A stretch of 35,002 nucleotides of DNA from a virus: the UHGV virus genome UHGV-0140552, one strand, 5' to 3'. The stretch's first letter is position 1. Every line of letters begins with the position of its first letter. Below the pieces are notes generated by a model. It was not told where the DNA came from, did not search any database, and saw only the letters and a list, made by a program, of their open reading frames with translations. Both the position numbers and the translations under genes were made by a program. Shown one piece after another: positions 2,210 to 9,763 of the stretch.

Positions 2210-4401
2210 TATGCTTTCTCCTCGGCTTTATTCAGTTCTTTAATGCGCCCATCTTTGATGGAGATGAGTCGGCGGAGCCGGCCAGACAGATAACGTTCAT
2301 GCTGCGTGTCGCCGTTGGCCTGGGCGGCTTTAATGTGAACATCGATCTCACGTGCGATAGGGGAAAACACACCGTTGATTTCGTTCACCGTCACGCCATG
2401 CGCCAGGGTATTAGCAACGCGGCTTAATTTATCGTCAAACTCCTGGCGGAGCCGTGCTGCATCTTCGGCTGATTCGCTGGCGTTCTTCAGGTCAAACTCG
2501 GCCTTGTTCTTCTGGCGGTACTCCAGATTGTCGTAAAGCCCCATAAAGATATCGCCACTGAATCCGAGGCCGGATAACGCTTTTTTGGTCGCATCTGTCA
2601 GTGATTTTTTGGCTGCTTCGCCGTCGCAGGTGATCCCGTATTTACTACCGTAAATGTAGGGTGTACAGCCGTATGCTGTTTCCTCACCTCGTACTCCGTT
2701 CAGGATGTACCAGAGCCGGACAGTCACAACATGGTGCTGTTCGTTGACGGTATTACCATTCCCATCAAGAACCAGCTCCCACGATGCGTTGTTGTCTTTG
2801 CCTTTTACTTGCCGAGTGATCGGCGCGCCAATATCGAAACGCTCTTCAACAATATCCACGCCCCAGCCGATGCCCTTAGGGCCAAACTCACGTGTGGCAA
2901 GCATGGTCATGTAGGTACCGTTGATCGAGGTGCCACCGCCGTTCTGTGTGAAAGCCTTAGTAAACCTTTCGTCGGTTTTAAATACGCGTTTCCAGAGGTC
3001 TAAATTGTCTTCCCCGATGATTGGTTTTCCGACAGCCTGCACAACATCCTCAGCGTTAGGCAGGCTTTCAGCGTGAGCGATTTGTTTTGCTAAACGCTCG
3101 GAATCATCAGCCAGTTTTTCAGCCTTAACGCTTAACTTCTCTTCCGGCTCTGCACCTTCACCAGAGGCATATACGCCATAACCCATATCATTGAGCGTCT
3201 CACGCGCCTGTTTGGCCTGGGTGTCGGTTACAACCGGCTGCTGCGCTTCCACTTTTTCGCCCACGTTTGAGGCGGTATTTTGCGTCGCCTCTGGTTGTTT
3301 AACGGATCCTGTCTCGGTTTCCTCAAAGCGGCCGTTGGCCGCCAGCCATGAATCGATATGGCGGCGCAGGCTGTCAGGGAAATGGTAGGTATCTTTCGCC
3401 GGTACGTTTTGTACCACGCCGAAGATGCTGGCGCGGTCGTATTTGAGTATCTGCGGCGTGGTGTGCAGCGATGCTGACCAGCGTTTAAAATCTTCCCGGT
3501 CATCGGAAATCATCTTCTTAGCGTCCAGAAGGTTTCCGGATAGTACCGGCGCATCAGGCGCCAGCGGGAGAAGGGCGGTAGCGATCTCCTGATCCAGCGT
3601 TGCATAAGTGTGTTTATATCCGCGCTTAGAAATTACCACGGGTGTTTTATCATCGGTGCTGGTGCTGGTGCTGGTGCTGGTGCTGGTGCTGGTGCTGGTG
3701 CTGGTGCTGAGAGCGGTATTTTTATATACGCCGGGGGCCAGTTCGTCGCGCTTGCCCGGATTCTCAAGCCAGCGTTTAACGAACTGAGAGATAGCCGCTT
3801 TGCCCGGCGTCTGGTTTTCAAAGTGGGAGAAAATACCCTGAATAAGATTGTTCAGACCTTCCACATGCATGCTTTGAACCGGGAAGTTATTTTGCAGGGC
3901 ACACAGAACATTAAAGTTAAAGCGATCTTCCTCTTCAAATTCCCCATCGTGGTTTTTCAGATTATCCAGATAATCCACAACCTGAGAATAAAGATGGCCA
4001 TCAATCGCCGCGGTACTAAAAAGCAGGACGGCAGCAAAGCGTTCATCAGGGGAAACGGTCATCAGGTCGATCACTTCATCGTCGGCAGGTAAACCTGCAC
4101 CACTTCCGGAAGCGCTATCCTGCGCAGTAGAAACCCATTTTTCACCGTCAAAAGTATGCTGCTGGGCGAATGACTCATCGAACTGGCCAACGGTCGGCAG
4201 CGGCTGGCCTTCAACGTGTTCCCACAGTTTCGGTTTGAAATAGTTGTCACCATTGGCCGGGTATGATTCCCAGAGTTTGCCGGTCATAATGCTTTCGGCC
4301 ACTTTTTTGTTTGGCGCATCGATGGCGATCGCCAGCTGCACGGCGCCGCAGTCTTTAATCGCCGATTTCTTTGGCTCAAATGAGCCGTTGTAGATGGTCA
4401 T
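2209..4401 (-). CDS. Large multidomain protein (730 aa) with C-terminal Rad52/Sak-type single-strand annealing domain and an internal (Ser-Thr)9 linker
   Basis: Segment GCTPYIYGSKYGITCDGEAAKKSLTDATKKALSGLGFSGDIFMGLYDN matches the Rad52-family signature (K-x-A/S-V/L-TD-x-x-K-K/R-AL-x-x-F/L-G). Start placed at ATG 4399-4401, which has the GAGGAAAGACCA RBS motif; the ORF-track start at 4434 is a GTG without a Shine-Dalgarno. Confidence 0.75.
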   Translation of the reverse strand: MTIYNGSFEPKKSAIKDCGAVQLAIAIDAPNKKVAESIMTGKLWESYPANGDNYFKPKLWEHVEGQPLPTVGQFDESFAQQHTFDGEKWVSTAQDSASGSGAGLPADDEVIDLMTVSPDERFAAVLLFSTAAIDGHLYSQVVDYLDNLKNHDGEFEEEDRFNFNVLCALQNNFPVQSMHVEGLNNLIQGIFSHFENQTPGKAAISQFVKRWLENPGKRDELAPGVYKNTALSTSTSTSTSTSTSTSTSTDDKTPVVISKRGYKHTYATLDQEIATALLPLAPDAPVLSGNLLDAKKMISDDREDFKRWSASLHTTPQILKYDRASIFGVVQNVPAKDTYHFPDSLRRHIDSWLAANGRFEETETGSVKQPEATQNTASNVGEKVEAQQPVVTDTQAKQARETLNDMGYGVYASGEGAEPEEKLSVKAEKLADDSERLAKQIAHAESLPNAEDVVQAVGKPIIGEDNLDLWKRVFKTDERFTKAFTQNGGGTSINGTYMTMLATREFGPKGIGWGVDIVEERFDIGAPITRQVKGKDNNASWELVLDGNGNTVNEQHHVVTVRLWYILNGVRGEETAYGCTPYIYGSKYGITCDGEAAKKSLTDATKKALSGLGFSGDIFMGLYDNLEYRQKNKAEFDLKNASESAEDAARLRQEFDDKLSRVANTLAHGVTVNEINGVFSPIAREIDVHIKAAQANGDTQHERYLSGRLRRLISIKDGRIKELNKAEEKA
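3655..3708. repeat. Perfect hexanucleotide tandem repeat (GGTGCT)x9, in-frame within the 730-aa gene, encoding (ST)9
   Basis: Read directly: nine contiguous GGTGCT units on the plus strand; on the minus coding strand AGCACC gives S-T repeats. Confidence 0.95.
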
Positions 4402-4445
4402 TGGTCTTTCCTCTTGGTTACTGGCGCAGGTCACGCGCCGGTTAA

Positions 4446-4769
4446 TTAAAACGGTACGTCGCTTTCTTCAATTGGAGAGTGATCGATGCACAGCAGCTGC
4501 TGAATCTGGTCTTCAATAACACCCAGCTCCTTCTTTGCTTCGGCAGAGATTTTCTCTTTCTTCGCACGAAGGGCATTAACCTGCATACCAATAATGTCGA
4601 TTGGCTCTAAAGCTGGAATGGCAACCTCTACCGTTTTGGTAGTAACGAGGACATACAGATCAGGGTATTGCTGTGACATGTCACAGGTGAATGAGTGATA
4701 AGACGTTGGTAGATATGGGTTGGTTGTGGCCATAACGTAAATAGTTACGGGGATGGTAAGCGCTTCCAT
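4446..4769 (-). CDS. Hypothetical protein (107 aa), first gene of the leftward early operon; C-terminus ...PIEESDVPF
   Basis: ORF with a strong AAGGAG Shine-Dalgarno 5 nt upstream of the ATG at 4769. No recognisable domain. Confidence 0.7.
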   Translation of the reverse strand: MEALTIPVTIYVMATTNPYLPTSYHSFTCDMSQQYPDLYVLVTTKTVEVAIPALEPIDIIGMQVNALRAKKEKISAEAKKELGVIEDQIQQLLCIDHSPIEESDVPF

Positions 4770-4887
4770 AGCGACTCCTTGATGATATATACTCAGAGCC
4801 GATCAGCGGCTCTGTCGTTGGTCTTTCCTCGCTACAGGGTTGGTCCCCTGTAGCATTCTGGGCGGTTTGGTCACTGTCCCGGGTAAA

Positions 4888-4962
4888 TTAGCCCACTTCG
4901 GTGGGCTTTTTTACGCCTGAAGGTTGCCGGTCTTTCCCGGCTGTCAGGGTGGTCAGCCCCAT
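4888..4962 (-). CDS. Possible leader-peptide ORF (24 aa, MGLTTLTAGKDRQPSGVKKPTEVG) ending inside the terminator hairpin
   Basis: ATG at 4960-4962 is preceded by a perfect copy of the GAGGAAAGACCA initiation motif. The stop codon (4888-4890) sits at the base of the 4890-4907 hairpin. Very short and unverified. Confidence 0.25.
   Translation of the reverse strand: MGLTTLTAGKDRQPSGVKKPTEVG
4890..4912 (+). terminator. Intrinsic-terminator-like hairpin AGCCCAC-TTCG-GTGGGCT followed by TTTTT (plus-strand sense); A-tract on the other side, so possibly bidirectional
   Basis: 7-bp GC-rich stem, TTCG tetraloop, T-run 4908-4912. Located in the ~490-bp noncoding leader between the repressor gene and the early-left genes. 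Confidence 0.55.
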
Positions 4963-5169
4963 TGGTCTTTCCTCGTTACTGCGTGAATGCTTTAAAAAAA
5001 TGCCCGGGGCGCCCGGGCCAAGACTACACACAGCAATTCGCATTCGTTGCGGTCTTTCCCGCATGTCATCGTACTGTCGGCGACCCGAAGAATTCGCGCC
5101 CGTCTTTCCGGACTGTCAGAACTGTTTCTGAACAACTGCCGCGTGGTTAGTGCGTCGTTGATGTGATGT

Positions 5170-5263: not shown

Positions 5264-5650
5264 TTATTTTTGTTTGCGGGCTTGCAGTAACTCCTCAAAT
5301 AAACGATTGAAACCGTCTACTTTTTCGCGAAGTTCCGTTAAATGCCGCTCTTTTTCAGATTCTGGGAGTGACGAAAAGAGTTTTAAAAGCTCTGTTTCTC
5401 GTTCATCTAATGGCGGCGGGGTGTCTACCGGGGTTCCCGGAGTGGCGGCTTCATCGCCGTAAAGTATCCAGGTAGGGCTGCATTGAAGTGCGTTACTTAA
5501 AGCGAAAAGGTTTTTTCCGCCAGGCTCACTATCACCGGTCTCCCACTGGGAGATAGTGACGTGCGCGACGTTAACCAGCTTCGCTAAAGCGCGCTGAGTA
5601 AGTTTGAGATCTTTTCTACGCGCTCTGATGCGCTCACCTGGCATTGTCAT
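5264..5650 (-). CDS. Phage repressor, HTH XRE-family (128 aa), RacR/CI-like, no S24 peptidase domain
   Basis: N-terminal HTH (LTQRALAKLVNVAHVTISQWETG). Divergent from a cro-like gene, with palindromic operators in the 80-bp intergenic region. Too short to carry a LexA-like autocleavage domain. Confidence 0.85.
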   Translation of the reverse strand: MTMPGERIRARRKDLKLTQRALAKLVNVAHVTISQWETGDSEPGGKNLFALSNALQCSPTWILYGDEAATPGTPVDTPPPLDERETELLKLFSSLPESEKERHLTELREKVDGFNRLFEELLQARKQK

Positions 5651-5652
5651 AG

Positions 5653-5666
5653 TTAGATAATTCTAA
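5653..5666. promoter_or_regulatory. Operator-like 14-bp palindrome TTAGATAATTCTAA (OR-like, proximal to the repressor gene)
   Basis: Palindrome read from sequence. On the minus strand it contains TAGAAT about 10 nt upstream of the repressor ATG, suggesting a leaderless PRM-like transcript. Confidence 0.6.
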
Positions 5667-5672
5667 ATTTCC

Positions 5673-5701
5673 TTGACTTCGTTATCTCGAACACCTAATT
5701 T
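5673..5701 (+). promoter_or_regulatory. Putative early-right promoter (PR-like): -35 TTGACT, 17-bp spacer, -10 TAATTT
   Basis: Sequence match. The -10 is weak, so this is a tentative call. Confidence 0.35.
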
Positions 5702-5702
5702 G

Positions 5703-5716
5703 TTAGAAAAATCTAA
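5703..5716. promoter_or_regulatory. Operator-like 14-bp palindrome TTAGAAAAATCTAA (OR-like, proximal to the cro-like gene)
   Basis: Palindrome lies between the putative PR -10 and the CAGGAGGG Shine-Dalgarno of the cro-like gene. Confidence 0.6.
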
Positions 5717-5730
5717 CAGGAGGGTGTTTC

Positions 5731-5925
5731 ATGTTAACAACTGATGCGATCAAATATTTTGGTAGTAAGAGAAAACTGGCTGAGGCCGCTGGCGTTAAGG
5801 CTCCTACTGTCTATGCGTGGGGGCGTTTGGTTCCTGAAGGTAAAGCGGCTCGTTTGTCTCTGATGACTGATGGCGAACTTGTTTATGACCCAAAGGCTTA
5901 CCAACTGCCAGCCAAATCAGCTTAA
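5731..5925 (+). CDS. Cro-like / YdaS-family small HTH regulator (64 aa)
   Basis: Small ORF divergent from the repressor, with a strong Shine-Dalgarno (CAGGAGGG). HTH-like segment KRKLAEAAGVKAPTVYAWG. Same arrangement as racR-ydaS in the E. coli Rac prophage. Confidence 0.75.
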   Translation: MLTTDAIKYFGSKRKLAEAAGVKAPTVYAWGRLVPEGKAARLSLMTDGELVYDPKAYQLPAKSA

Positions 5926-5987
5926 CAATTAGCGGCATCGAAATCTGATTACGCTTAATCAATTTTCAGCGACAGGAGACGCTCGAA

Positions 5988-6434
5988 GTGGAATACCTCG
6001 AAGAACTTAAACGAGAGATCTTTAACTGGGCAGCGGAAAGCGGGCAGGAGCTGGTTGCTATCGAGATAAGCCGCATGTGGTTTCGTCTTGGTGGTAATAC
6101 CGGTTCGCTGAAGCTGCACCAGATCGAAGATGCAGATGGAAACGCCGACTGGCGGGCAATCAACAACAACCGCCAACAAATTTTTCGTTGGTTGCGAGGC
6201 GAGACCAAAGCCGCGAGAGCCAAAACTCTGGCGCTGGTCAAAGCGATGGAAGCGGCGCTGCCGGCAGAACGTTACGCGCGCTTGGGTATGTCCACTCAGT
6301 ATTTAATTTGTGTGGCCATTCGCGAGTTTGCCGCGGCGATTATCGCGTTGTTACTCGACGCCAGAGACGGGCCGCAGCAAGTCGCCAGAGCATTGCAAGC
6401 TATGCGAGAAACACAGCGCCTGACCAGCGTTTAA
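5988..6434 (+). CDS. YdaT-like / CII-like regulatory protein (148 aa), GTG start
   Basis: Follows the cro-like gene. AGGAG Shine-Dalgarno 9 nt upstream of GTG 5988. The QQIFRWLRGETK segment is reminiscent of the YdaT family (recalled from memory, unverified). Confidence 0.55.
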   Translation: MEYLEELKREIFNWAAESGQELVAIEISRMWFRLGGNTGSLKLHQIEDADGNADWRAINNNRQQIFRWLRGETKAARAKTLALVKAMEAALPAERYARLGMSTQYLICVAIREFAAAIIALLLDARDGPQQVARALQAMRETQRLTSV

Positions 6435-6454
6435 CCTGTACCGAGGAAAGACCA

Positions 6455-6676
6455 ATGAGAACACAAGACCGCATCACCTGGCGGAACGGGTTTCGCCGGA
6501 ACGGGGTACAAGTCCCGATAGAAGATATCGAATTGATTTTCGAGGAACGTCGCGCTGCTGCGCTGACAATCTGGGAACGCTACGAGCTGCGCAAAGCAGA
6601 CCTGCAGGAAGCGGGACTCACCCAGAAAGAATATGAAATCGCCTGCCGCCAGCTGGCTGACTCGCTGGGGATCTGA
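6455..6676 (+). CDS. Hypothetical small protein (73 aa)
   Basis: ATG 6455 is preceded by the conserved GAGGAAAGACCA motif. The longer ORF-track call (6188-6676) overlaps the YdaT-like gene and lacks an RBS. Confidence 0.6.
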   Translation: MRTQDRITWRNGFRRNGVQVPIEDIELIFEERRAAALTIWERYELRKADLQEAGLTQKEYEIACRQLADSLGI

Positions 6677-6678
6677 GT

Positions 6679-7671
6679 ATGAATATTTTGCCATTACTCG
6701 ACAGGCCGATCGCCTTCCAGCGTAGTTTCATTCGCCTGAATATCGGTGTGACGGCTGCACTGTTCCTGTCTCAAATGACTTACTGGACTAACCGATCCGA
6801 CGATGATGGATGGGTATATAAAACCCAGGAAGAATGGGAGGAAGAAACAGGCCTTTCCCGTTACGAACAGGAGGGGGCGCGTAAGAAACTTCGCTCAATT
6901 GGTGTACTGCTGGAAAAAAAGAAAGGTGTACCTGCTCGTCTTTTCTACAAGATTGATAATGATGTTTTATTTCAATCACTTGTAGCCGCAAACAAGAATG
7001 CGGAAAAACCACATACTGGAATGCGGAAAACCAGCAAACAAGTAAGTGGAAAACCAGCAAACTTTCTTACAGAGAATACTACAGAGAATATATATACCCC
7101 TAACCCCTTAGAGGGGGAAGGCGTTGAGTTAATTCTTTCTGATGCACAAAAAGCGCTGGAATTTTACAACGAGCAAACCGGTACCCGCTGCCGTGACCTG
7201 AAACCGTTTGTGATGATGCTGACGCCGACCACCACCCGGGAAGGTTACACCCTGGACGAATTGCAGTTAGTTATCCGCTGGGTGCTGGCCACATGGCGCC
7301 GCCGTGGCGATAGCCTGCCGAAGCCAGCGAACATCTGCCGGGTAAACCGCTTTGATGGTTATCTCGCTGACGCTGAAGCATGGGCGGTGACCGAAGCCGA
7401 TATTGACCCCGAAGCCGTTATGAACGGCTACAACGAAATTTTTGCTGACGCTCTGCCTGCTGCTGAACTCGACACCGACCGCCGCCGGATGATCACCCGT
7501 CTGGCCGCCCATATGAAAAACAAAACCACGGGCGCATTTCTGGGCTATTTCGAAAAATTCCGCGCTGACGCCTCCGATTTTTACTTTGGTGAAAATGGCG
7601 GATGGCGCGCCAGCTTTGACTACCTGATGAAGCCTGAAACATTGCGTAAAACTCGTGAGGGATCGCTATGA
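6679..7671 (+). CDS. Phage replication initiation protein (O-like / replisome organiser, 330 aa)
   Basis: Sits immediately upstream of, and translationally coupled to, the DnaB-type helicase gene. N-terminal DNA-binding-like region and a C-terminal region typical of phage replication proteins. Confidence 0.7.
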   Translation: MNILPLLDRPIAFQRSFIRLNIGVTAALFLSQMTYWTNRSDDDGWVYKTQEEWEEETGLSRYEQEGARKKLRSIGVLLEKKKGVPARLFYKIDNDVLFQSLVAANKNAEKPHTGMRKTSKQVSGKPANFLTENTTENIYTPNPLEGEGVELILSDAQKALEFYNEQTGTRCRDLKPFVMMLTPTTTREGYTLDELQLVIRWVLATWRRRGDSLPKPANICRVNRFDGYLADAEAWAVTEADIDPEAVMNGYNEIFADALPAAELDTDRRRMITRLAAHMKNKTTGAFLGYFEKFRADASDFYFGENGGWRASFDYLMKPETLRKTREGSL

Positions 7672-9056
7672 CTCCGCAGGAACTGGAATCTTGTGTACTG
7701 GCTGGACTGCTTAACGGTGGAGCAAGTCCGGACGCTTTCGACGTGATCGCATCGACGCCTGAAGAATCATTCAGCATTGTTTTTCATCGTCGCGCCTTCT
7801 CGGAAATCAAAAAACAGGCGTTGACGAACGGTCTGATCGATATGCTGTTTGTCAGTGAGGCTCTGGGAGGGAGTAGCCTGGCTGATTTATCAGAGATTTC
7901 GCGTATGCCCGCAACGGTACCAAACCTGAAAGGTTACGCCGGGAAAATGGTGAAGGCGTGGCGCAGCCGCCGTATGGCTGAATTACTGCAACATGGTGCT
8001 GATGGTATCCGCCAGGCGAATAATCAGGAGCAGCGCGATCAGATTGTCGAAACTGCCGTGGCGCAGCTGCTGGACATGACCGGCGACACTGGCGACGTGC
8101 AGCCGGTACACATGAGCGAATTATTGCCGGTGTACATGGAAACCATGCAGAAGCGCATGGACGGCGAAGAGGGTACTCGCAACCTGAAAACCGGGATCGA
8201 GGAACTGGACGATGCGACCGGCGGAATCAACCTGCAGGATTTGATTGTCGTCGCCGGGCGTCCGGGCATGGGAAAAACAGAATTTGCGCTGAAGATTGTC
8301 GATGGTGTTACCGCTGCTGGCGGTGGCGCGTTGATATTCAGCATGGAAATGGCCGCTGCGCAAATCGTAGAACGCTCTCTGGCGGGTTCTGGCAACATGT
8401 CAGTGTCACGCCTGCGTAATCCCCTCGATATGCAGGACGAGGACTGGGCGCGCTTTACCGCGGCCATGGAGACCATGAACGGGCGAGATATCTGGATCGT
8501 TGATGCTACCGATCTGACGATTGAGCAAATCCGCGCCGTTGCCGAAACGCATAAGCGCCGGTATCCGCATCTGGCGATGATCGTTGTCGATTACCTTGGC
8601 CTGATAAAAAAACCGAAGGCAGAGCGTAACGACCTCGCGATCGCCCACATATCCCGAAACCTAAAAACTATGGCTATGCGCCTGCATACGCCGACGTTCG
8701 CGCTTAGCCAGCTTTCCCGCGCCGTGGATTCCCGCCCGGCGGCCCAGCGCCGCCCGGTCATGTCAGACCTGCGCGATTCCGGTTCCATTGAGCAGGACGC
8801 CGACAGCATCATGTTTCTGTACCGCGATGAGGTTTACAACCCGGAAAGCCCGGCGGCTGGCGTCGCTGAAATTATCCTGGGTAAAAGCCGCTTCAGCGCC
8901 GCAGGCGCAATTATTTATCAGGAATTTAAAAACGGACACTTTCTGTCAATGGATCAGCATGTTGGCAAAGAGAAAACACGTATCCAACTGGAGGCCGCGA
9001 AACCCCGGAAACAACCCCGTAAATACTCAGAGAAATTCAATACCGATGCATTTTAA
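7668..9056 (+). CDS. Replicative DNA helicase, DnaB family (462 aa)
   Basis: Walker A GRPGMGKTEF, Walker B-like IVVDYLGLI, and overall DnaB C-terminal RecA-fold layout. Confidence 0.9.
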   Translation: MTPQELESCVLAGLLNGGASPDAFDVIASTPEESFSIVFHRRAFSEIKKQALTNGLIDMLFVSEALGGSSLADLSEISRMPATVPNLKGYAGKMVKAWRSRRMAELLQHGADGIRQANNQEQRDQIVETAVAQLLDMTGDTGDVQPVHMSELLPVYMETMQKRMDGEEGTRNLKTGIEELDDATGGINLQDLIVVAGRPGMGKTEFALKIVDGVTAAGGGALIFSMEMAAAQIVERSLAGSGNMSVSRLRNPLDMQDEDWARFTAAMETMNGRDIWIVDATDLTIEQIRAVAETHKRRYPHLAMIVVDYLGLIKKPKAERNDLAIAHISRNLKTMAMRLHTPTFALSQLSRAVDSRPAAQRRPVMSDLRDSGSIEQDADSIMFLYRDEVYNPESPAAGVAEIILGKSRFSAAGAIIYQEFKNGHFLSMDQHVGKEKTRIQLEAAKPRKQPRKYSEKFNTDAF

Positions 9057-9094
9057 CCGCGCCTGACCAGCGCGATTTAACTGAGGAAAGACCA

Positions 9095-9763
9095 ATGACC
9101 ACGAATTTAAATTACCCAAAACCAGTAAAACCGGATGATGGCTGCAACTGGCTCCCCGTTATTCTCTGGCGCATGAATGCCGGTGCGCGCGCCCGTAGCC
9201 GTTCCGTGTTCGTAGCGGCGCCACGTCCGGCCCCTGTACCAGGCATCACCCCGCAAAAACCGATTAAGCGAGAAATTATCGCCCCTACGGTTTCCGGCCG
9301 CAGGCGTAAAACCCACATCGGCACCGTGATTTATTCCAGAGGTGAAAAAAGCGTTCGCCTTAGCGAAGGCGCGACTGTCTGGTCTGCTGGCTCAAATGAG
9401 CATTTCGATAAAAAAACGGGCCAGCGCGTCGGCAGTATTGGCCGTCACCGTCTGGTGCTGGAGAGTATCCGCCCATTGCAGGCCAGCGACGCACAACAGG
9501 ACGCCGGGAGCGTCACCGCGCAGCAACTGGTAGCCGTGATGAAAGGCAAAACGCTTTCTTACCAGGGCATTCTGGCATTAATCCAGAAGCACTATCCCGA
9601 TTGTCAGGTGACGACTAAAGAACTTCACGATCGCGTGTTCGGCATGTTCATGTCGAATTACGTGGGTATCACCCGTCACGACGATATGCCGGTGGTTCAC
9701 TTCACGCTTAACAGCGTCGATCCCCGTTATTACATCGAGTCAGCGAAGAACAAGAGGGCATAA
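9095..9763 (+). CDS. Hypothetical protein (222 aa)
   Basis: ORF preceded by the GAGGAAAGACCA motif. Coding-like composition, no recognisable domain. Confidence 0.65.
   Translation: MTTNLNYPKPVKPDDGCNWLPVILWRMNAGARARSRSVFVAAPRPAPVPGITPQKPIKREIIAPTVSGRRRKTHIGTVIYSRGEKSVRLSEGATVWSAGSNEHFDKKTGQRVGSIGRHRLVLESIRPLQASDAQQDAGSVTAQQLVAVMKGKTLSYQGILALIQKHYPDCQVTTKELHDRVFGMFMSNYVGITRHDDMPVVHFTLNSVDPRYYIESAKNKRA

Follow-up and report, generated by a model that had tools for sequence, protein, structure and literature searches.

It is an old proposal that mosaic phage genomes are joined at conserved boundary sequences, and why these stay conserved is rarely clear. Lambdoid phages, for which Susskind and Botstein reportedly put forward a model of modular evolution, carry conserved linkers of this sort in the 'boundary sequences' of HK620 and related genomes, and phages also make antisense RNAs that occlude ribosome-binding sites (RBSs), among them P22 sar, lambda OOP and the c4 RNA of P1/P7, which acts on a2/b2 before icd-ant. 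Relaxed homologous recombination by phage recombinases at short, diverged homologies has been documented experimentally (De Paepe et al. 2014, PMC3945230). In Cluster K mycobacteriophages, start-associated sequences (SAS) and their extended form (ESAS) place an asymmetric 13-mer with a Shine-Dalgarno (SD) motif just before the ATG of genes from unrelated families, only in non-structural genes and in one orientation, with 11–19 copies per phage, an upstream inverted repeat in about half of the copies and conservation beyond what pairing with 16S rRNA accounts for; their function is unknown (Pope et al. 2011, PMC3203893). Here we describe an element of related kind in the viral genome UHGV-0140552 (35,002 nucleotides (nt), analyzed as a whole and called the window below): a short cassette, usually a small hairpin followed by the 11-nt core GAGGAAAGACC, that stands before start codons of early genes. 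Two of its copies, J1 after the YdaT-like gene and J2 after dnaB, enclose the replication block, and we consider them probably two of six copies of an RNA cassette that is associated with gene starts, is under selection and at the same time acts as a recombination joint.

SAS/ESAS is the closest described kind of element, and the cassette is its analogue, not its homologue. Both consist of an SD core a few bases before the ATG of non-structural genes from several families, in one orientation. They differ in sequence (GAGGAAAGACC versus GGGATAGGAGCCC), in host phylum and in number, with 4–8 cassettes per phage versus 11–19 SAS copies. Moreover, the stems of the hairpin upstream of the cassette covary, whereas ESAS repeats showed no support for RNA pairing, and, unlike SAS, the cassette is accompanied by a putative gene for a complementary antisense RNA and has some non-coding copies.

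The likeness of J1 and J2 that the initial annotation had observed is confirmed by direct reading. The same words follow in the same order, namely GCGCCTGACCAGCG (6416–6429 and 9059–9072), TTTAAC (6430–6435 and, as UUUAAC in the spacer, 9076–9081) and GAGGAAAGACCAATGA (6443–6458 and 9083–9098), although the first is a 14-mer rather than the 12-mer originally given and the coordinates had been one base off. The 14-mer is limited to these two copies in the window, against 0.01 expected from shuffles with one mismatch allowed. The 16-mer has two exact copies on the plus strand and, with up to two mismatches allowed, five in all, each with 0–1 mismatch, against 0.00 expected; the further copies lie on the minus strand, one exact (4413–4398) and two with one mismatch each (4830–4815 and 4974–4959). 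By our own estimate, the probability that chance would place two exact words, one of 14 nt and one of 16 nt, in the same order in 35 kb with a spacing tolerance of about ±3 nt is about 4e-9, so the likeness reflects homology. The description of both as intergenic junctions holds for the 14-mer of J2, but in J1 the 14-mer is still coding, at the 3′ end of the YdaT-like gene (...Q R L T S V stop); the hairpin of J1 overlaps the last codons of that gene, and the stop TAA (6432–6434) falls inside TTTAAC. J1 is thus not a purely intergenic junction. At J1, the ATG inside GAGGAAAGACCAATGA (6455–6457) starts a gene of 73 amino acids (aa), and at J2, the ATG at 9095–9097 starts a 222-aa gene.

Nor are the two junctions a special pair, since the 16-mer also occurs elsewhere in the window and the core has six copies there, four before genes and two in the untranslated PL leader (Table 1). 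J3 has the full J1/J2 architecture: its stop codon is followed by a GC hairpin whose loop is UGACC, by a spacer with AACCAA at its end and by the 16-mer, and its ATG (4401–4399) starts the gene of a 730-aa exonuclease. The cassette of the excisionase-like gene is without the UGACC hairpin, and its upstream part is coding. In the leader, the first copy (core 4830–4820, minus strand; its complement is the seed region of the plus-strand RNA described below) is followed by ACG rather than ATG, and in many relatives ACG, AAG or GTG takes the place of ATG after the leader copies, the second included; the reading frame downstream of the leader copies is not conserved among relatives, so translation of a downstream gene cannot be their sole function. 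A 24-aa open reading frame (ORF) from 4962 and an ORF overlapping the 4830 copy were rejected as leader genes because neither frame nor start codon is conserved. The word GGAAAGACC occurs eight times in the window versus 0.32 expected, always co-oriented with the early genes, always below 9.1 kb and never at 9.1–35 kb, and is thus restricted to non-structural genes in one orientation.

The conservation of the cassette could be followed in 142 related loci (1.35 Mb), most of them retrieved by a hairpin-plus-core pattern, with the other copies in each locus and the loci derived from BLAST not selected for. The exact core occurs 556 times in these loci versus 0.64 expected; one-mismatch variants number about 47, with about 21 expected from chance alone, and in most of them the first base is the one that differs; the sequences flanking the core are 20–60% diverged (70–80% identity or less). 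AAAGACC is invariant in hundreds of copies, including positions without pairing potential to 16S rRNA, so the core is kept far more strictly than an SD sequence needs and the whole word appears to be under selection. Loci commonly hold 4–6 cores and up to 8, with cassettes at 4–8 early positions per phage. The counts indicate strong purifying selection on a cassette that is oriented with early transcription.

As a unit, the cassette consists of a GC hairpin of 4–6 bp presenting a UGACC loop, 8–13 nt that usually end in AACC, the core and an ATG 0–5 nt on, and it is often preceded by UUUUAA(C), which is the last codon and stop of the upstream gene. The ATG lies 0–5 nt 3′ of GACC in 435 of 514 copies, and the genes downstream belong to the 73-aa, 222-aa, exonuclease and excisionase families, with extra genes besides. 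Of 293 distinct contexts, 194 show GACC or AACC in the loop of the best local hairpin upstream of the core; the stems vary by position and phage (CGCGC/GCGCG, CACGC/GCGTG, GGCGC/GCGCC, GGTGT/GCACC, GTCGT/ACGAC). Among 62 distinct hairpins, 77% of cells pair, and covariation is 0.298 versus 0.143 in shuffles (0/500), with every slid control lower. Minimum-energy folds contain the small hairpin alone and leave the SD and AUG unpaired. A scan of the window against Rfam found no family at its gathering score, and a search of a collection of microbial papers for the motif on either strand found no mention of it.

The carriers of the cassette form a large family of Enterobacterales prophages with DicA/DicC immunity and a YdaT-RepO-DnaB gene order. 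By BLAST, only the Stenotrophomonas-labelled phages BUCT708/709 and a few Escherichia coli prophages match; these have the same gene order, with cassettes at the same places even where the genes are less than 80% identical. In the phage collection, the region is matched by BUCT708/709 alone. The hairpin-plus-core pattern was found in at least 120 viral contigs and, among bacteria at one genome per species, in Serratia, Citrobacter, Enterobacter, Escherichia whittamii, Raoultella, Shimwellia, Rosenbergiella and Pseudescherichia. The 11-mer with its hairpin is a cheap marker for a poorly studied prophage family of which only two phage genomes (OM816834.1 and OM816835.1) have been deposited. Both are labelled as Stenotrophomonas maltophilia phages, a host label that looks doubtful because all other relatives were found in Enterobacterales.

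The initial annotation had proposed that J1 and J2 are substrates for module exchange and that the replication block between them is a swappable unit. Alignment of relatives supports this in part. We compared 59–83 distinct related loci (83 at J1 and 79 at J2) in 200-nt windows on each side of the core, calling a pair discordant when identity was at least 95% on one side and at most 85% on the other. Counted as pairs rather than as independent events, discordances number 92 across J1 versus 0 between two windows inside YdaT, and 31 across J2 versus 4 and 0 in controls, so breakpoints are present at both junctions. Identity switches at the edges of the conserved block, at +10 to +19 (35/45) or −55 to −30 (30/33) for J1 and at −45 to −35 (21/26) for J2; in alignments of discordant pairs, drawn from loci chosen by the motif, about 45–60 nt stay identical while one flank falls to 65–80% or about 40%. 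In one pair (L021 and L070), a stretch of 98% identity covers YdaT and J1 and ends near +100 nt, 2.3 kb of about 40% identity follow, and from J2 onward identity is back at 95–100%. Such replacement of the whole module was seen in 6 pairs by strict counting and about 10 more by a looser one; exchanges confined to the 73-aa gene or to the DnaB end are equally frequent, and the left breakpoint often falls not at J1 but about 100 nt into the 73-aa gene. Whole blocks are thus replaced between J1 and J2, but swaps below the level of the module are just as common.

Other exchanges involve the cassette directly. One relative (L002) carries a 316-nt insertion of one gene and one cassette, flanked by direct repeats of GAGGAAAGACCA, at the very place of a single cassette in the window, and genes of six different families are linked to the exonuclease gene downstream of them through the cassette. 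By family, the partners at the two junctions are constant, YdaT with the 73-aa family at J1 and DnaB with the 222-aa family at J2; non-homologous replacement at J1/J2 was therefore rejected, and the exchange is one between diverged alleles or very distant homologues rather than unrelated genes. No deletion derivative joining YdaT to the 222-aa gene was seen among the related loci. A four-gamete-type count, which is too conservative to be of use, found one cycle at J1 and none elsewhere, and discordances between alleles were counted in its place. The boundary between the 73-aa and RepO genes is cassette-less and holds only a conserved GCTGGGGATCTGA block of 13–16 nt. The cassette is thus one kind of mosaic joint among several, and the data fit either crossover in the block or survival of boundary-joined recombinants. 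The block at the 73-aa|RepO boundary (GCTGGGGATCTGAnnATGA, 6660–6690 in the window and homologous positions) was itself seen joined to at least 4–5 different RepO N termini.

The cassette resembles the lambdoid boundary sequences in being a short conserved block between dissimilar modules with breakpoints at or near it, and the phage of the window encodes its own exonuclease and recombination genes, as in relaxed-recombination systems. Unlike the lambdoid linkers, it is reused at non-allelic positions and in a non-coding leader, it bounds single-gene insertions, and its conservation is far stricter than a relic of recombination would call for. Islands of homology at gene starts would result from selection for a common expression signal and would then be used by recombination.

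Comparative data point to a candidate for the factor behind that selection, a putative small RNA (sRNA) gene of IsrB type on the plus strand opposite the leader copy at 4830. The predicted RNA has a single-stranded UCGUUGGUCUUUCCUCGCU (4814–4832), which is the complement of the cassette, and two hairpins with UUGGUC loops. In alignments around this copy in plus orientation, relatives conserve a TATAcT/TATAAT that stands 19 nt away from the start codon (ATG) of the 107-aa gene on the other strand, as well as a single-stranded CGTTGGTCTTTCCTCG and two TTGGTC-loop hairpins with freely covarying stems, and the T-run of the terminator is present on the plus strand only. RNAalifold finds compensatory changes in 18 of 31 predicted pairs, and cells with G.U versus A.C number 114 to 3 in favor of the plus strand (15 to 0 in an independent count), a bias which argues that the selected folded molecule is an RNA antisense to the PL leader. 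Its minimum free energy is −54.9 kcal/mol (z of about −6). Just downstream of the putative −10 element, a GATC (Dam site, 4801–4804, plus strand) is nearly invariant in the loci; it can pair with wobbles to the first UUGGUC and could be methylation-sensitive or structural.

IsrB is an 88/94-nt Salmonella RNA, detected by primer extension and Northern analysis, that lies beside sbcA in Gifsy-1/Gifsy-2 and is antisense to both neighbors (PMC2330248). Like it (Padalon-Brauch et al. 2008, PMC2330248), the window RNA would be about 90–115 nt long and antisense in the early-left operon by exonuclease-side genes, with a −10 element some 20 nt away from the ATG of the opposite gene, a hairpin whose loop is UUUGGUC and a terminator with GCCCACUUCGGUGGGC. 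The Rfam isrB model (RF01386) matches 4827–4911 (plus strand) over its full length at 28.7 bits, below the gathering score of 35. A covariance model built on the window family (R1) scores untrained homologues at 100–133 bits and matches Gifsy-2 at 5958–6085 on the correct plus strand (E of about 4e-4), over the mapped IsrB at 5987/5993–6080, where TAGAAT lies 21 nt from the sbcA ATG in the same geometry. Unlike IsrB, the RNA of the window family has an extra 5′ part that holds the anti-cassette and the second UUGGUC-loop hairpin, and Gifsy-2 has neither cassettes nor anti-cassette.

The single-stranded segment of the sRNA is the exact complement of GAGGAAAGACCAA and, with one G.U, pairs through AUGA to give 16 bp over the SD and start of J1, J2 and J3; the UUGGUC loops are complementary to the GACCA of the cassette loops. 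Of the 93 loci with the 3′ part of the sRNA, 86 contain all 11 nt of the anti-cassette without mismatch and 92 contain 9 nt of it or more, and in Gifsy-2, an IsrB without the anti-cassette goes with no cassettes. Whole-molecule RNAduplex energies are −55 to −70 for cassette targets versus −34 to −48 for controls, values that ignore intramolecular structure and on which we do not rely. In an mRNA, the cassette would act as a standard translation-initiation signal whose sequence is frozen because a trans factor reads it, and the best candidate for that factor would be this antisense RNA. Its single-stranded UUGGUCUUUCCUC (plus CG) could pair with 13–16 nt covering the SD and AUG of every cassette, the kissing of its UUGGUC loops with the UGACCA loops of the cassettes providing the contact that starts pairing. 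The sRNA might keep leaky early expression of cassette genes off in the lysogen, and PL transcription on induction would then consume it. The same 40–60-nt block kept in diverged phages offers homology where relaxed phage recombination joins modules, and exchanged modules would stay compatible with the resident regulator.

We would tentatively describe the cassette as a possible 'address label', by which one sRNA pairs with the identical SD-to-AUG stretch of the excisionase gene, the exonuclease gene, the gene that heads the replication module and the 222-aa gene; because the label is the same across the family, modules recombined at it would, if this is true, come under the control of the resident phage. 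The RNA would then resemble c4, sar and OOP as a small phage RNA with loop-exposed recognition motifs that complements an RBS, and silencing of lytic or early genes in the lysogen would be expected; those RNAs act on one operon at 1–2 sites, whereas up to four dispersed genes in both early operons may be addressed here. An sRNA that reads the cassette would make this a multi-gene, phage-encoded translational regulon in Enterobacterales, in which regulon and recombination joint are the same sequence. We know of no function assigned to an IsrB-type RNA, so this would be the first one proposed, and it would offer a testable explanation for the mycobacteriophage start-associated sequences.

Several points weigh against this account of the cassette as a selected, regulated joint. 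One conserved junction per locus is given by construction, because the retrieval pattern requires one hairpin-plus-core, and the discordant pairs do not count independent events. At the level of alleles, discordances number 16 at the 73-aa|RepO boundary, 10 at J1 and 5 at J2; a boundary without a cassette is at least as mosaic, and the cassette is therefore not needed for exchange. A scan with a consensus promoter did not call the plus-strand promoter of the sRNA, for which there is no good −35. Complementarity between sRNA and cassettes is automatic once the leader holds a cassette copy, and the invariant core permits no covariation test. A Shimwellia pseudoproteus prophage (L140) has J1 and J2 cassettes and an IsrB-like RNA without the anti-cassette, and genuine IsrB finds only chance-level matches of 8–10 nt as trans targets in Gifsy-2. 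The predicted control of the cassettes in trans by the sRNA is best regarded as possible rather than probable. The RNA of the Shimwellia prophage (4181–4297, minus strand) consists of only the 3′ hairpin and terminator.

The view of the initial annotation, that the block is purely a recombination linker without function of its own and a by-product of repeated homologous joining, accounts for the sharp switches of identity at cassette edges, the whole-module swaps and the gene insertions bounded by cassettes, and phage Rad52-like recombinases are reported to recombine short, diverged homologies (PMC3945230). Breakpoints at the block agree with this view, but recombination does not purge point mutations from an 11-nt word that is found exact 556 times and with one change about 47 times, nor would it orient all copies with transcription 0–5 nt from an ATG. 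The leader copies, which join no modules, are equally conserved, the stems covary, and the cassette-less boundary is as mosaic. Near-invariance throughout the family at 4–8 early positions, non-coding leaders included, means that recombination alone is no explanation, and we hold a pure linker to be very unlikely. At the other extreme, the cassettes might be ordinary strong RBSs that are alike by convergence or chance. GAGGA is a good SD core at normal spacing, but shuffles and counts exclude chance, positions unable to pair with 16S rRNA are invariant in hundreds of copies, and the RepO, DnaB, theta and methylase genes of the same operons have no cassette, so this explanation is effectively refuted; low sequence complexity was likewise rejected by the shuffles.

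A more serious rival to an sRNA reader is a phage or host RNA-binding protein, acting as a translational repressor or activator or as an antiterminator, that reads GGAAAGACC or the GACCA loops, with the PL leader, which packs five GGAAAGACC and several GACCA loops into about 300 nt, serving as its loading site or as a CsrB-like sponge. The leader segment 5118–4928 lacks complementarity to the sRNA yet carries three UGACAGnCGGGAAAGACCG hairpins, their loops being GAAAGA, together with a core and a CUGACCA hairpin; the Shimwellia prophage keeps its cassettes without an anti-cassette sRNA; the N terminus of the 73-aa protein is rich in Arg and Trp; and a consensus intrinsic terminator, with a second seen by eye, lies in the PL-sense leader (5018–5002) upstream of all left-operon genes. 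Against such a protein, no known RNA-binding family was found among the early-gene products, the leaders have no boxA, and hairpins 2 and 3 beside the leader core are selected on the antisense rather than the leader strand, which leaves us to think it unlikely. The cassette could also be an element of RNA processing or stability, its hairpin protecting the 3′ end of the upstream cistron and its A/U-rich spacer serving as an RNase E site, such that the polycistronic early RNA is cut into separately stable and separately translated messages, in function much like the early RNase III sites of T7 or stabilizer hairpins between cistrons. At J2 and J3 the hairpin does come right behind the upstream stop and at J1 it lies over that stop, with UUUAAC, AUAAAACC or the like next in line, and its stems covary; stems of 4–6 bp are far too short for RNase III, though, and processing gives no account of the invariant AAAGACC, the UGACC loop, the hairpin-less excisionase cassette or the leader copies, so we regard it as quite improbable. 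Two kinds of site known from other phages were also rejected: a lambda-type nut site (boxA upstream of a boxB hairpin in both early leaders, with an Arg-rich N gene after nutL), because boxA CGCTCTT(T)A has no match in the leaders and matches window-wide only at chance level, while the 107-aa product of the first PL gene is poor in Arg for an N protein and a member of a family of unknown function; and a T7-type RNase III site (a stem of about 20 bp with an internal loop), because the stems have 4–6 bp and about −8 kcal/mol.

Table 1. Cassette copies, the putative antisense RNA gene and neighboring genes in the window
Feature	Position	Strand	Details
Cassette J1	6415–6457	+	Hairpin AGCGC-CUGACCA-GCGUU 6415–6431, spacer, core GAGGAAAGACC 6443–6453
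Cassette J2	9054–9097	+	dnaB stop TAA 9054–9056, hairpin CGCGC-CUGACCA-GCGCG 9058–9074, core 9083–9093
Cassette J3	4399–4448	-	Stop of 107-aa gene 4448–4446, hairpin GGCGC(G)-UGACC-(U)GCGCC 4439–4423, core 4413–4403
Excisionase core GAGGAAAGACC	1257–1247	-	Directly before ATG 1246–1244 of DUF4224 excisionase-like gene
Leader copy 1, non-coding	4815–4850	-	Hairpin CUACAGGG-GACCAA-CCCUGUAG, then GAGGAAAGACCAACGA (ACG, not ATG)
Leader copy 2	4928–4974	-	GAGGAAAGACCAAUGG 4974–4959 (core 4974–4964), hairpins GGG-CUGACCA-CCC and CCGG-GAAAGA-CCGG
Putative IsrB-like antisense sRNA gene	4788–4912	+	−10-like TATACT 4788–4793, predicted transcript ~4797–4912, terminator 4890–4912
YdaT_toxin/CII-like gene	5988–6434	+	Family identity upheld
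73-aa gene, function unknown	6455–6676	+	No family assignment found
RepO-like initiator gene	6679–7671	+	Family identity upheld
DnaB gene	7668–9056	+	Family identity upheld
222-aa gene, function unknown	9095–9763	+	
Replication block J1–J2	6455–9056	+	73-aa gene, RepO-like gene, DnaB

Some features of the surrounding genes deserve mention. The RepO-like gene contains three tandem 23-nt repeats (6986–7054; CCGCAAACAAGAATGCGGAAAAA and variants), the expected origin iterons. The N terminus of the 73-aa protein, MRTQDRITWRNGFRRNG (encoded at 6455–6505), is Arg/Trp-rich and loosely recalls arginine-rich RNA-binding motifs; this stretch is the conserved part of otherwise diverged alleles, and some left breakpoints lie in it. 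The immunity region (5264–5925) is of the DicA/DicC (Qin/Rac) type, with a repressor gene at 5650–5264 (NF007257, 185.8 bits) and a Cro-like (DicC) gene at 5731–5925; operator-like repeats of the form TTAGA-N(5-6)-TCTAA were seen by eye between these two genes and at PL. The 730-aa exonuclease gene has an internal tandem array of the hexamer GGTGCT (3655–3715), a repeat of Gly-Ala type.

The first terminated segment of the PL leader (5093–4992, minus strand) resembles the 3′ half of the host sRNA RprA in its GAAUUGCUGUGUGUAGUCUUGGCCC and terminator (5018–5002 and T-run), scoring 41.6 bits with the Rfam RprA model at a threshold of 70. The UUGCUGUGUGUAGUCUU-terminator core recurs in 48 related loci, where the stems of the terminator covary, and early termination may yield from this segment a prophage mimic of RprA, for which StxS is a precedent (PMC7547250). 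Three copies of UGACA(G/U)nC(G/C)GGAAAGAC(C/G)G at 5118–4928 (minus strand) form small GAAAGA-loop hairpins with a boxB-type look, all outside the region complementary to the IsrB-like RNA. In the late region, a second repeat family on the plus strand (14372, 18202, 18319, 28987, 30919 and 33823), mostly between late genes, forms hairpins of (U)UUGGUCGGGAUUCCGACC or UAGUCAGGAUUCCGACCU that contain the UUGGUC word of the sRNA loops.

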